64,000 nucleotides of DNA from a phage. The translations under genes were made by a program, and so were the position numbers. The notes beneath the pieces are model-generated. The model was given only the letters and a program-made list of their open reading frames with translations. It had not been told where the DNA came from and searched no databases. Location: the sequence record PX068455.1; one strand, given 5' to 3'. Shown in pieces: positions 60,927-64,000 of this stretch (the first letter of the stretch is position 1; each line of letters begins with the position of its first letter).

Positions 60927-61003
60927 TGGTCTCCACGGAGTGATTCGAACACTCGACCTCCTGATCCCAAATCAGGCGCTCTACCAAGCTGAGCTACGCG
61001 GAG
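60927..61003 (-). tRNA. tRNA-Pro (anticodon UGG)
   Basis: 77-nt cloverleaf read by hand: acceptor CTCCGCG/CGTGGAG, anticodon loop UUUGGGA, T-loop GTTCGAATC, CCA encoded. Confidence 0.8.
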
Positions 61004-61014
61004 TATTTATTATT

Positions 61015-61089
61015 TGGTGGCCCTGGGTGGAATTGAACCACCGTCTGGCGATTATGAGTCGCTTGCTTGAACCTTCCAGCTACAGGGCC
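61015..61089 (-). tRNA. tRNA-Met or Ile2 (anticodon CAU)
   Basis: 75 nt: acceptor GGCCCTG/CAGGGCC, anticodon loop CUCAUAA, T-arm GGTGG-TTCAATT-CCACC, CCA encoded. Confidence 0.75.
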
Positions 61090-61090
61090 A

Positions 61091-61166
61091 TGGTGCTGAT
61101 GGCAGGACTTGAACCTGCAACCTATTGATTACAAATCAATTGCACTGACAATTGTGCTACATCAGC
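61091..61166 (-). tRNA. tRNA-Thr (anticodon UGU)
   Basis: 76 nt: acceptor GCTGATG/CATCAGC, D-arm GCAC/GTGC, anticodon loop UUUGUAA, T-arm GCAGG-TTCAAGT-CCTGC. Confidence 0.8.
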
Positions 61167-61170
61167 AAAA

Positions 61171-61269
61171 GGTGCTAGGTGATGGAATCGAACCACCTAT
61201 GTATTCAACGACTACCTCGTCTATTTTCAGGATTAAAAATCCTCGCCCTTGCCAAAGGGCTTACCTAGC
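61171..61269 (-). ncRNA. atypical tRNA-like gene (about 99 nt) with non-canonical anticodon region
   Basis: Perfect acceptor GCTAGGT/ACCTAGC, canonical D-arm GCCC/GGGC and T-arm GGTGG-TTCGATT-CCATC, but anticodon arm only 15 nt and a 31-nt extra region. Confidence 0.45.
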
Positions 61270-61367
61270 GCAATATGTTGACCATGTGGCTAGTCGGCGA
61301 TGACGACTGTAACATTTGATAATCCGGTTCTGCTTCCGGCTTTCGCTTAATTACAAGGTCAACAATG

Positions 61368-61458
61368 TGGCGGAGAGTAATGGAATCGAACCATCATCGA
61401 GTTATCCTCAACGGGACGGTTTTCAAGACCGCTTGAGCACCATTGCTCCCTACCCTCC
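61368..61458 (-). tRNA. tRNA-Ser (anticodon UGA), type II
   Basis: About 91 nt: acceptor GGAGGGT/ACTCTCC, anticodon arm GCGGT-CUUGAAA-ACCGT, long variable arm, T-loop TTCGATT, CCA encoded. Confidence 0.7.
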
Positions 61459-61572
61459 TTTATAAATTACACTGATAATGACACTGATTTTCGAGCAGTT
61501 AGTGACTAGTATAAACGACGATAAATATCAATGTCATTATCTGTATGATTTATGCATTTAAAAATATAAATT

Positions 61573-61659
61573 TGGTGGGGAGTGGTGGAGTCGAACCACC
61601 CGAGTCGCAATGACAATAGATTTACAGTCTACACCGCTACCTCTACGGGATAACTCCCC
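61573..61659 (-). tRNA. tRNA-Tyr (anticodon GUA), type II
   Basis: 87 nt: acceptor GGGGAGT/ACTCCCC, anticodon arm ending ACUGUAAAUCU as in bacterial tRNA-Tyr, T-loop TTCGACT, CCA encoded. Confidence 0.75.
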
Positions 61660-61663
61660 AATT

Positions 61664-61738
61664 TGGCACCCCGTACTGGACTCGAACCAGTGTCAACGGC
61701 TTAGAAGGCCGCTGCTTTATCCACTAAGCTAACAGGGC
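61664..61738 (-). tRNA. tRNA-Arg (anticodon UCU)
   Basis: 75 nt: D-arm GCTT/AAGC, anticodon arm GCGGC-CUUCUAA-GCCGT, T-arm ACTGG-TTCGAGT-CCAGT, CCA encoded; G1-U72 wobble. Confidence 0.7.
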
Positions 61739-62173: not shown

Positions 62174-62518
62174 GTTTCCTCCATTATCACGTGATAGGTG
62201 GATTTTATCACGGCAAATACTGATTGTCAAGTTCGCCGCAGGGTGGTATTCCCTGCGACTTGCCCAGCGTCCTGGACCAGCAAGACCCAACAAGTGGGTT
62301 ACCAGATACCCATTACCGCGCTCTGGCTCGACCTTATTACAGGTTGGCTGGGGTCACATCGTCATGTGCTGGCTGCCCCTACCATTTTAAGTGTGGTGCA
62401 CTATCAAGCCCTCTAAGGGGAACTCAGACTTCTCCGAACCCTGTTTCAAAGCATCCGGAGATAAAGCCATCAAACTCATCTTTAAATTGGATATTCATCA
62501 TGATACACGAAAACAACC

Positions 62519-63036: not shown

Positions 63037-63615
63037 TCAACGTTCGTAGTAAATCTTATTCAACATTACCTCATCGTTTGCAGAAAGGATATCAAGATAT
63101 GCATCACCAAATCTGCCTGCAACAACCTCTGCATGATACATCACTTCGTTAACATCGTCAAGAGTGATAACCGGATGACCATATCTTTCTGAATATTGTC
63201 TCAGTGTGCGATGTAACGAGTCGTCATCATATGCAGACTTTTTAATATCACAAACACGACGAATGGCCTTGATGTCGAAAAAACCTGTGCGATACCACCC
63301 AAGAAAAAAGTTCCGTGTAGTGTCAACATCTACATCAATACCATTAAGAACCTTATCTACAAGATAGCTGTCATCCTTTGGACTAGCGTCCTTAGTGCGA
63401 ATGTAGTTGCCATCTTTTCCAGGTGATAGCTCCTTCTCATCACCAACTTGCATGCCATCATTTGGCGGTGTTAGCCACTTATCAGGATGCTTACGATCAC
63501 GAGCGTTAGAATGATTACGCTGGAAACCTGGCTTCCACTTGAAAGTTTTCTCCATCTGTTCTTCATTCTGATAACGTTTTGCAATCTTTTCACTGGCATC
63601 TTTGCGTGAACTCAT
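63037..63615 (-). CDS. hypothetical protein
   Basis: 192-aa ORF with AGGAG RBS. Confidence 0.4.
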   Translation of the reverse strand: MSSRKDASEKIAKRYQNEEQMEKTFKWKPGFQRNHSNARDRKHPDKWLTPPNDGMQVGDEKELSPGKDGNYIRTKDASPKDDSYLVDKVLNGIDVDVDTTRNFFLGWYRTGFFDIKAIRRVCDIKKSAYDDDSLHRTLRQYSERYGHPVITLDDVNEVMYHAEVVAGRFGDAYLDILSANDEVMLNKIYYER

Positions 63616-64000
63616 AGCAGACTCCTCTTCAAGTTATAGAAAAACTCACTGTATCGCTTTGTAACGAGCTTTTCTATCAAACTGGTGCGATTGCCTTACT
63701 TGGTATAGTTTATATAGCTGTGGAGCGATTTAGGGGCCTTCTTGTCAGTTTCCACACATAAACTTTATCCGAACTCGCGCGGGAGGCTCTCAACCGACTC
63801 CTTCCGGCGCTGGCAAGCTTTCGTCGGTGGTACACATTAGTGCTCGGCCTTTGGCCTGCGCTATCGCTTCGCTCCCACACATGTTAACAGTCCTGCATGT
63901 ATGCACTTCTGTTATTGTGTGCACTATGGAGGCCCGGCATCTCGCCCCTCGTAGGCGAGTGCCAATGAAGGGCCGACACTACCCATAATAAGTAATAAAT

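Follow-up and report, generated by a model that had tools for sequence, protein, structure and literature searches.

A conserved structured element beside an origin-like repeat array in rV5-like coliphages, shared with small satellite-like plasmids of Escherichia coli

The origin of bacteriophage lambda has four dyad-symmetric O-binding iterons, an AT-rich region and a palindrome, is subject to transcriptional activation, and has the oop RNA nearby. T4, a large virulent myovirus, makes two stable, structured, non-tRNA RNAs beside its tRNA cluster, "species 1" and "species 2" (rnaC, rnaD), which are about 120-140 nt long and are not adjacent to an iteron array, and we know of no sharing of these RNAs with satellites. 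The rV5-like phages are widely used, as in O157 typing, in biocontrol and in the BASEL collection. In these phages the locus described here is a concrete candidate, with a conserved 300-nt fold, a 25-nt invariant junction and a lambda-like repeat array alongside, and it links the virulent rV5-like phages to a sizeable family of small plasmids that bear capsid and tail genes. Previous studies reported that the rV5-like phages PVP-SE1 and PhiTE were terminally redundant and circularly permuted (PMC3475682), and in the rV5 genome paper an origin of replication could not be defined (PMC3606486).

We analysed 64,000 nt of DNA from an rV5-like coliphage, genus Vequintavirus (record PX068455.1, hereafter the window). 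A GC-rich segment free of ORFs and with nested inverted repeats had been predicted in it at 63720-63990, at the window end, and had been read as a possible structured non-coding RNA, a packaging or replication site, or a boundary with foreign DNA. In all likelihood this segment belongs to a ~300-nt structured element of an undescribed family on the minus strand, which is present in all Vequintavirus and whose core, an exchangeable module, recurs in part of a plasmid family.

The GC-rich segment and its setting in the phage genome

The GC content of 63720-63990 was 0.550, against a window mean of 0.444 (sd 0.029, 271-nt windows), which made it the highest-GC 271-nt stretch of the 64-kb window; 0.02% of the 271-nt windows attained 0.550 and every one of them overlapped this site. 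The high GC that had been predicted was thus borne out once it was properly computed. The longest ORFs touching the segment were of 56 aa (63710-63880, minus strand) and 53 aa (63827-63988, plus strand), followed by ORFs of 44, 32 and 31 aa, in agreement with the claim that neither strand holds an ORF of at least 60 aa, and both inverted repeats were present as described, namely the nested hairpin (P1 in Table 1) and GGCC-TTT-GGCC at 63846-63856. Each strand folded better than its dinucleotide shuffles (z of -2.6 and -3.3, 0/200 shuffles as good). The segment is therefore a real feature, and what did not stand was its extent, since the window end cuts through a gene-free gap of 660 bp, which runs in phage ECP2303 from window position 63616 to the equivalent of 64276.

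A 401-bp query (window 63600-64000) was 100% identical to ECP2303 and matched 119 GenBank phage records at 90-100% identity, with the element in single copy in every matching record, and blastn at E <= 1 against 50,697 phage records gave matches in Vequintavirus only. Both flanks were ordinary phage DNA, collinear in the 119 relatives, which spoke against a boundary with foreign DNA. Moreover, the element was conserved more strongly than the neighbouring genes; in L004, a divergent relative from IMG/VR, the neighbouring protein was 82% identical, the upstream flank unrelated and the GC-rich body nearly unchanged. IMG/VR scans with the core, and with the type B core, scaffold, major capsid protein (MCP) and Rep of the plasmids described below, returned a single rV5-like contig only, and nine pattern matches in GTDB (Collinsella and others) proved to be chance 21-mer matches in unrelated context.

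The element lies in a minus-strand unit whose order is a divergent promoter region, polynucleotide kinase, phosphoesterase, the HTH gene and the gap, after which come three small genes, seven tRNA genes, the spanins and the large terminase. The downstream 192-aa gene occurred in 120 phage records (119 for the element), in the same groups by organism name; its product had no Pfam or PDB match, and its AlphaFold2 model (pLDDT 37) was unusable. The 192-aa and the 116-aa HTH_36 proteins were both restricted to the same ~119-120 Vequintavirus records, and a search for the module in other Vequintavirinae through these two neighbours found none; because both proteins are confined to Vequintavirus, no distant synteny was usable. 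Elsewhere in the unit, a second conserved structured non-coding patch with compensatory changes of its own was observed at 62215-62470, and the seven tRNAs and the two structured patches lie within 3 kb. TGTGTGGG occurred nine times in the window against 2.8 expected, an enrichment that we did not take as meaningful, the other eight copies standing in unrelated contexts with no shared flanking motif, and CYCTAAAT, considered as a promoter-like motif, was not enriched.

In the majority of GenBank phage records nothing is annotated at the element; CDSs of 171 and 96 nt, which correspond to the 56-aa and 31-aa ORFs on the minus strand, are annotated in NHEP1 and the BASEL phages (PHAROKKA-type annotation). 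Candidate ORFs held 1-nt indels in L004 and in three further relatives (L009, L011, L015), and three other relatives lacked an 18-nt block and thereby one hairpin. The variable sites at codon positions 1/2/3 of the five ORFs numbered 16/21/18, 6/8/6, 12/8/8, 13/18/12 and 8/8/10, and the differences from the plasmid homologues were paired across stems, not silent. Compensatory changes, conservation above that of the neighbouring genes, frame-breaking indels and the absence of codon bias thus support the structured non-coding RNA among the readings of the original prediction, and even the most conservative reading makes it improbable that the small ORFs entered in several GenBank records represent genes.

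Parts of the element, base-pair changes and strand

Table 1. Features of the element and its neighbourhood, in window coordinates
Feature	Position	Strand	Remarks
Seven tRNA genes	60927-61738		ARAGORN
192-aa gene, PHROG 12226	63037..63615	-	downstream of element
12-13 bp hairpin AUAGAAAAGCUC...GAGUUUUUCUAU	63636..63677	-	immediately before the ribosome-binding site of the gene that follows
3' domain	63680..63776	-	includes CCCUAAAU (63728-63735) and ACAGCUAUAUAAACUAUAC..GCAAUCGCA
Core domain, UGUGUGGG to CCCGCGC	63777..63881	-	covariance model R1
Covarying 6-bp stem ACCGAC/GUCGGU	63793..63828	-	encloses 25-nt junction
Invariant 25-nt junction GAAAGCUUGCCAGCGCCG[G/U]AAGGAG	63798-63822	-	inside 6-bp stem
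UGUGUGGG	63874-63881	-	same 8-mer as boxC of the E. coli rrnB leader
Hairpin 3, ACAUG...CAUGU	63879..63900	-	leads into UGUGUGGG; predicted in MFE and alifold structures
Variable hairpin 2, GUGCAC...GUGCAU	63901..63924	-	
5' hairpin P1	63931..63974	-	GGCCC / GGCA-CUCGCC ... GGCGAG-UGCC / GGGCC
5' flank	63975..64000	-	start of AT-rich stretch continuing past window end
116-aa HTH_36 gene	64276-64626 (window-equivalent)	-	in ECP2303

P1 had standard pairs at 15/15 positions across seven distinct sequences; in plasmid NZ_CP020521 two of its pairs had changed on both sides from G-C to U-A with pairing still at 100%, and its loop region held 1-nt indels in two phages. Hairpin 2 was lost through the 18-nt deletion in three phages and replaced in L004, and we therefore regard it as dispensable and peripheral, while hairpin 3 was conserved, with no compensatory changes. 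The covariance model R1 found exactly one match in the whole ECP2303 phage genome (134.7 bits) and one match per plasmid unit (100-106 bits). In every member the core was bordered by UGUGUGGG on its 5' side and by CGCGC on its 3' side; these flanks never vary and, given G.U wobbles, could pair on this strand but not on the other, and we propose that the core is closed by a GUGUG:CGCGC helix, which is invariant and hence lies outside the covariation test. The sole variable base of the junction, 63804, retained a GNRA loop (GGAA/GUAA). The 3' domain varied more than the core, its motifs recurred in the plasmid copies, and phage/plasmid homology reached into it. The hairpin just upstream of the next gene was predicted both in the window and in L004 and was nearly invariant among 16 relatives; when checked as a terminator it showed no consensus terminator.

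Phage and plasmid copies were compared for base-pair changes, with slid-partner and shuffle controls, a comparison that was informative because the loops are identical and the stems differ. The 6-bp stem read ACCGAC/GUCGGU in phages versus GCUGCC/GGCAGC in plasmids, with 3/6 pairs changed on both sides, and its fourth pair had changed from A-U to G.U in two phages. In this stem 198/198 cells were standard pairs, against 11-56% with the partner slid, and the covariation score was attained by 0/500 shuffles for the 6-bp stem and by 10/500 for P1. Altogether, five pairs had changed on both sides and one from A-U to G.U, with 302/302 cells paired, and these changes amount essentially to one phage/plasmid split and one change within phages, so that independent events are few. 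The check on conserved structure that had been proposed for the segment thus yielded compensatory base changes between phages and plasmids.

Evidence for the minus strand as the sense strand of the element came from its co-orientation with the flanking genes in phage and in plasmid, from the G.U at a covarying pair in two sequences, and from the plasmid copies, in which the sense strand was 5-12 kcal/mol more stable than the antisense strand (8/8 tested). The folding energy of the phage copy showed no strand asymmetry, and the RNAalifold energies of the phage alignment were equally non-discriminating. The greater stability of the sense strand in plasmids is a property that cannot separate RNA from DNA of the same strand.

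Rfam 15, searched at permissive E (<= 1-10), gave no match across the whole phage gap, none in the type A plasmid copy, with only noise at E > 2 elsewhere, and none in the type B copy; the families tested include tRNA, tmRNA, RNase P, 6S, SRP, pRNA, RNAI, C4, introns and ROOL/GOLLD. The Rfam scan that had been suggested for the segment was thus run and matched no family, and ARAGORN reported nothing within the element. Two likenesses were tried and rejected: that of the junction to the 16S 530 loop was no better than in shuffles, and that to SRP RNA helix 8 was contradicted by the covarying stem and the absent Rfam match. No consensus promoter or terminator was found around the element in phage or plasmid. 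The rV5 paper does not mention the element in the sections consulted or in Table S4, and no promoter or terminator is predicted there between P081 and P075 (PMC3606486). Since no promoter or terminator brackets the element, the phage copy would be made within the P081 transcript.

Plasmid copies and the origin-like context

Among 5,426 complete E. coli genomes the core was found only on small circular plasmids, which were 13.3-13.9 kb long (one record being a 39.6-kb trimer), and 7/5,426 carried a plasmid of this satellite-like family. Rep homologues of the family fell into 103 clusters (39-93% identity), almost all on contigs of 13.3-14.4 kb, from E. coli, Shigella and E. albertii. The plasmids encode major capsid, tape-measure, neck/tail-completion and baseplate-like proteins, small HTH proteins and a lambda-O-like/DnaD-like Rep, and four plasmid proteins were 30-50% identical to phage tail-region proteins; no terminase or portal appeared among the plasmid proteins scanned or the product names of the records, several small ORFs lying outside the scan. 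We take these 13.3-14.4 kb plasmids for probable satellites of rV5-like phages. Nothing relevant came up in literature searches on the RNA, on satellites of rV5 or on 13-kb plasmids, and the E. coli plasmid family is apparently undescribed.

The plasmid copies of the element were longer (340-470 nt), with hairpin modules, differing in number from copy to copy, set between repeats of the UGUGUGGG motif. Their RNA 5' scaffold was 87-99% identical, while Rep was only 37-90% identical. At one and the same position the plasmids have either of two cores, unrelated but similar in length: type A, which is the phage-like core (NZ_CP020521 and NZ_CP035869 are examples), and type B, which many plasmids of the family hold instead. 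The phage-type core is therefore not required for plasmid replication, as many plasmids have type B in its place. The type B core had no relative in GenBank phages or IMG/VR, and no co-variation was found between core type and the plasmid proteins from HTH_7 to the 78-aa gene.

In ECP2303, four phased 22-nt repeats at ~64119-64204 (spacing 21-22 bp) each contain a 17-nt dyad, and an AT-rich stretch of ~120 nt, strongest in its first ~50 nt and with two GATC sites, extends to window-equivalent ~64118; in the reading direction of the element the order is four repeats, AT-rich stretch, element. The 116-aa HTH_36 protein belongs to PHROG "replication initiation protein" families and matched the N-terminal DNA-binding part of the O-like Rep of the plasmids (E 1e-5); the half that O-like initiators have at their C-terminus is absent from it, and it might simply be a repressor. 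At the same place both the HTH protein and the repeats of L004 are different ones, which fits the expectation for a cognate pair. In the plasmids, four or five dyad iterons and a short AT-rich stretch stand before the element, and repeats and AT-rich stretch thus precede it in three lineages. The architecture makes it plausible that the repeat array is a replication origin. Of the two DNA-site readings proposed for the GC-rich segment, that of a replication site is plausible from this context, and that of a packaging site was not supported.

Taken together, it is very probable that the element at this locus is conserved, single-copy, non-coding and folded, that its junction is invariant, and that it is shared by phages and plasmids and fixed beside an initiator-repeat array. 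We infer that the element most probably acts as RNA.

Possible roles and comparison with known systems

Our best explanation is a structured RNA coupled to replication initiation, which we hold as a whole with moderate confidence. The RNA would be made in a sigma-70 unit that begins at the divergent promoter region (rV5 P081), includes the HTH gene and continues in the direction of the tRNA cluster, and would comprise the 5' hairpin, two small hairpins and the core with its 6-bp stem around the 25-nt junction. A factor of the host or of the helper phage may dock at the invariant junction. The origin-proximal transcript might activate or prime the origin-like site, or else act as a platform for the recruitment of replication proteins, and during helper infection plasmids that share the core would make use of this factor too. 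We favour such a coupling to replication initiation at this site because the element follows the HTH_36-associated dyad repeats and the AT-rich stretch in three lineages, and we put this particular step forward tentatively. If it is true that the shared core is a handle on the helper, it would represent a new mode of satellite-helper interaction and a new Rfam family.

The element might instead be a stable trans-acting non-coding RNA unrelated to replication and processed from an early transcript like the tRNAs. Some protein of the host or the helper would be its target, with the RNA acting as scaffold, decoy or sponge, for instance in host take-over or anti-defence, and the matching core of the satellites would compete for, or exploit, the same partner. 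This agrees with the RNA-gene-rich stretch in which the element lies (the tRNA genes and the patch at 62215-62470), with junction loops that are invariant while the stems covary, and with plasmid versions made of repeated hairpin modules between UGUGUGGG motifs, and it has a precedent in PhiTE pseudo-ToxI, a functional non-coding RNA of an rV5-like phage (PMC3475682). However, it leaves the position after repeats and AT-rich stretch in three lineages unexplained, no terminator or recognisable processing signal was found, and no plasmid protein in the range tested co-varies with core type, and we regard it as possible rather than probable.

A helper-satellite specificity RNA was also considered, in which satellites would swap ~95-nt cores on an RNA scaffold and so capture the RNA-binding factor of the helper. 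The phages would need the RNA for a DNA transaction at the origin site, either replication initiation or possibly packaging; type A would be a copy of the Vequintavirus core, and type B would match another helper. This is doubtful in our judgement; if true, it would mean an RNA-level hijacking module in a satellite system so far undescribed.

The element heads a long co-oriented minus-strand block, and as a cis-acting leader, working by RNA polymerase antitermination (rrn/nut, HK022 put) or RNase III-type processing, it would let transcription pass the tRNA cluster, which is not translated, and go on into the genes for lysis and terminase. UGUGUGGG, which precedes the core, is GU-rich in the manner of boxC, a lone 8-mer being weak evidence; in the plasmid copies, AGGCAATCTGTGTGGG agrees with the rrnB leader at 15/16 positions (0/200 shuffles as good), and some plasmids have a first UGUGUG module that is complementary to a CACACAUAU tract on the 3' side of the core, an arrangement resembling the processing stalk of rRNA. 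In the phage copy, however, similarity to the rrnB leader was not significant (local alignment, 137/200 shuffles scoring as high or higher), and no single-stranded boxA resembling GCUCUUUAACAA was found, only CUGUUAACA within a hairpin. The tract that resembles boxA is degenerate in the phage copy, in the plasmids a 9-bp stem buries it, and the downstream genes have sigma-70 promoters of their own in the phage (P075, P074, PtRNA) and in the plasmid, all of which makes a leader unlikely.

Were the hairpins to form on the displaced strand once the AT-rich region melts, the element would be a single-stranded DNA signal for priming or helicase loading, after the models of G4-type ssi signals, primosome assembly sites and RSF1010 ssiA/B. 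It directly adjoins the presumed unwinding element and has no promoter, its loops (GAA in GCGAAGC, GAAA, GGAA/GUAA) are stable in DNA and RNA alike, and the folding energy of the phage copy is symmetric between strands. On the other hand, the element lies inside a transcribed unit and has no similarity to Microviridae origins or to other phages (50,697 records), and we consider a DNA signal quite improbable. Finally, that the locus consists of one or two small protein-coding genes is scarcely credible: some records call CDSs here and the 56-aa frame is open for 40 codons in L004, but both minus-strand ORFs are hit by 1-nt indels in L009, L011 and L015, their codon-position counts show no enrichment at third positions, most records are without annotation, and the phage/plasmid differences pair across stems.

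Among the known systems, a structured RNA coupled to replication initiation is best set beside the lambda origin, whose order is matched here by four phased dyad repeats, an AT-rich stretch and a GC-rich hairpin-forming segment, and the neighbouring 116-aa protein is similar to O-like initiators in their N-terminal, DNA-binding part. The lambda origin, however, lies within gene O and has a 28-bp palindrome, whereas here a 300-nt conserved fold and a gene for a protein of only 116 aa stand at a putative origin. The T4 species 1 and 2 RNAs have a like setting beside tRNA genes, but no sequence or Rfam relationship to them was found here. ColE1 RNA II is, like the present candidate, a long structured origin-proximal transcript, and its fold matters for ColE1 function; there is no RNA I/RNA II homology here (no Rfam match), the plasmids are Rep-plus-iteron replicons, and the polarity to the AT-rich region differs.

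With the boxA-boxC/RNase III stalk of the rrn leader, lambda nut and HK022 put, the element has UGUGUGGG in common, to which the plasmids add their 15/16 match, and in some plasmid copies a long-range helix could enclose the folded body as in the rrn leader stalk. In contrast, the phage similarity is not significant, a single-stranded consensus boxA is absent, and the element is far larger than put or nut. The P4 CI RNA and PhiTE pseudo-ToxI (PMC3475682) are non-coding RNAs of a satellite and an rV5-like phage that act by mimicry or shared specificity; they are about 36-80 nt long, exert their effects through base pairing or by binding a toxin, and are not homologous to the element, and here, unlike there, helper and satellite carry the same folded core. 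The phi29 pRNA is a phage-encoded structured RNA within a DNA-handling machine, but the Rfam pRNA model had no match here and rV5-like phages have a TerL-type headful system (PMC3475682). On our best reading, the element is a phage-encoded structured non-coding RNA of a new family, which differs in size, sequence and arrangement from the systems compared.

Satellite-like plasmids and a second shared sequence

The 13.3-14.4 kb circular elements form a large family (Rep clusters, n = 103), which comprises E. coli plasmids and metagenome contigs (loci L017, L018, L020-L022, L032, L034 and L041-L049), and one of these elements was present in 7 of the 5,426 complete E. coli genomes. They code for a major capsid protein, a tape-measure protein, a neck/tail-completion protein, a baseplate-like protein and an O-like Rep, and neither terminase nor portal was found among the proteins scanned or the product names in the records. 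We consider these elements probable satellites of rV5-like phages; the literature searched contained no description of the family. Plasmid NZ_CP020521 (L017) is a recombinant. About 450 nt of other repeats split the usual satellite 5' scaffold in this plasmid (L017 480-1000), and the phage-type P1 hairpin, which is the 5' hairpin of the GC-rich main element and is absent from the other satellites, comes after this insert.

Among the satellite loci examined, 14 carried the exact 18-mer GATATTTGAGAATTGTTA, while it was not found in L017 or L047, where the stretches examined may end short of that region. The phage has a single copy, located inside a large non-coding region. GATATTTGAGAATTGTTA is a second short cis sequence common to phage and satellites, and it might serve as a promoter or packaging signal.

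Further features of the phage DNA

Four other features were located in the window or just past its end, and their positions are listed together with those of the 18-mer.

Positions of the features in window coordinates, or in the locus named
Feature	Position	Strand	Description
Second structured patch	62215-62470	minus	GC-rich, without ORF; conserved; folding and compensatory pairs
99-nt "tRNA-???"	61171-61269	minus	four-base anticodon (ARAGORN)
Hairpin	63636-63677	minus	AUAGAAAAGCUC...GAGUUUUUCUAU, 12-13 bp; nearly invariant
Four phased 22-nt repeats	L001 4520-4605 (window-equivalent 64119-64204, just past the window end)		dyad TGTCCGTATCACGGACA in each
18-mer, phage copy	L040 40278-40295 (PP261279 ~135,977-135,994)		GATATTTGAGAATTGTTA
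18-mer, satellite example	L032 6021-6038		GATATTTGAGAATTGTTA

The second structured patch lies directly upstream of the sigma-70 promoter P074 and is 92.6% identical to its counterpart in L004, a divergent rV5-like relative from IMG/VR. Two double-compensatory pairs and also 1-nt indels were present in the patch, its folding z-score was -2.6 on the sense strand versus -1.2 on the antisense strand, and an Rfam scan of it gave no match. The hairpin is directly 5' of the 192-aa gene's ribosome-binding site and may have a role in translation or processing. The 22-nt repeats, which adjoin the 116-aa HTH_36 gene and give way to an AT-rich stretch where GATC occurs twice, constitute a lambda-ori-like or operator array. 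The ARAGORN prediction, whose homologue is annotated as a 97-nt tRNA-Lys in a BASEL record, may represent a tRNA that is unusual or contains an intron.

We also observed rV5-like coliphage genomes under the label "Campylobacter phage" in 18 GenBank MG0656xx records marked UNVERIFIED (e.g., L016), which are probably mislabelled or contaminants.

Likeness to the rrnB leader

In the satellite copies of the main element, AGGCAATCTGTGTGGG is located upstream of the core (L020, L032), with a CUCUUUA tract on its 5' side that is buried in a 9-bp stem. AGGCAATCTGTGTGGG matches the boxC region of the E. coli rrnB leader (L038) at 15 of 16 positions.
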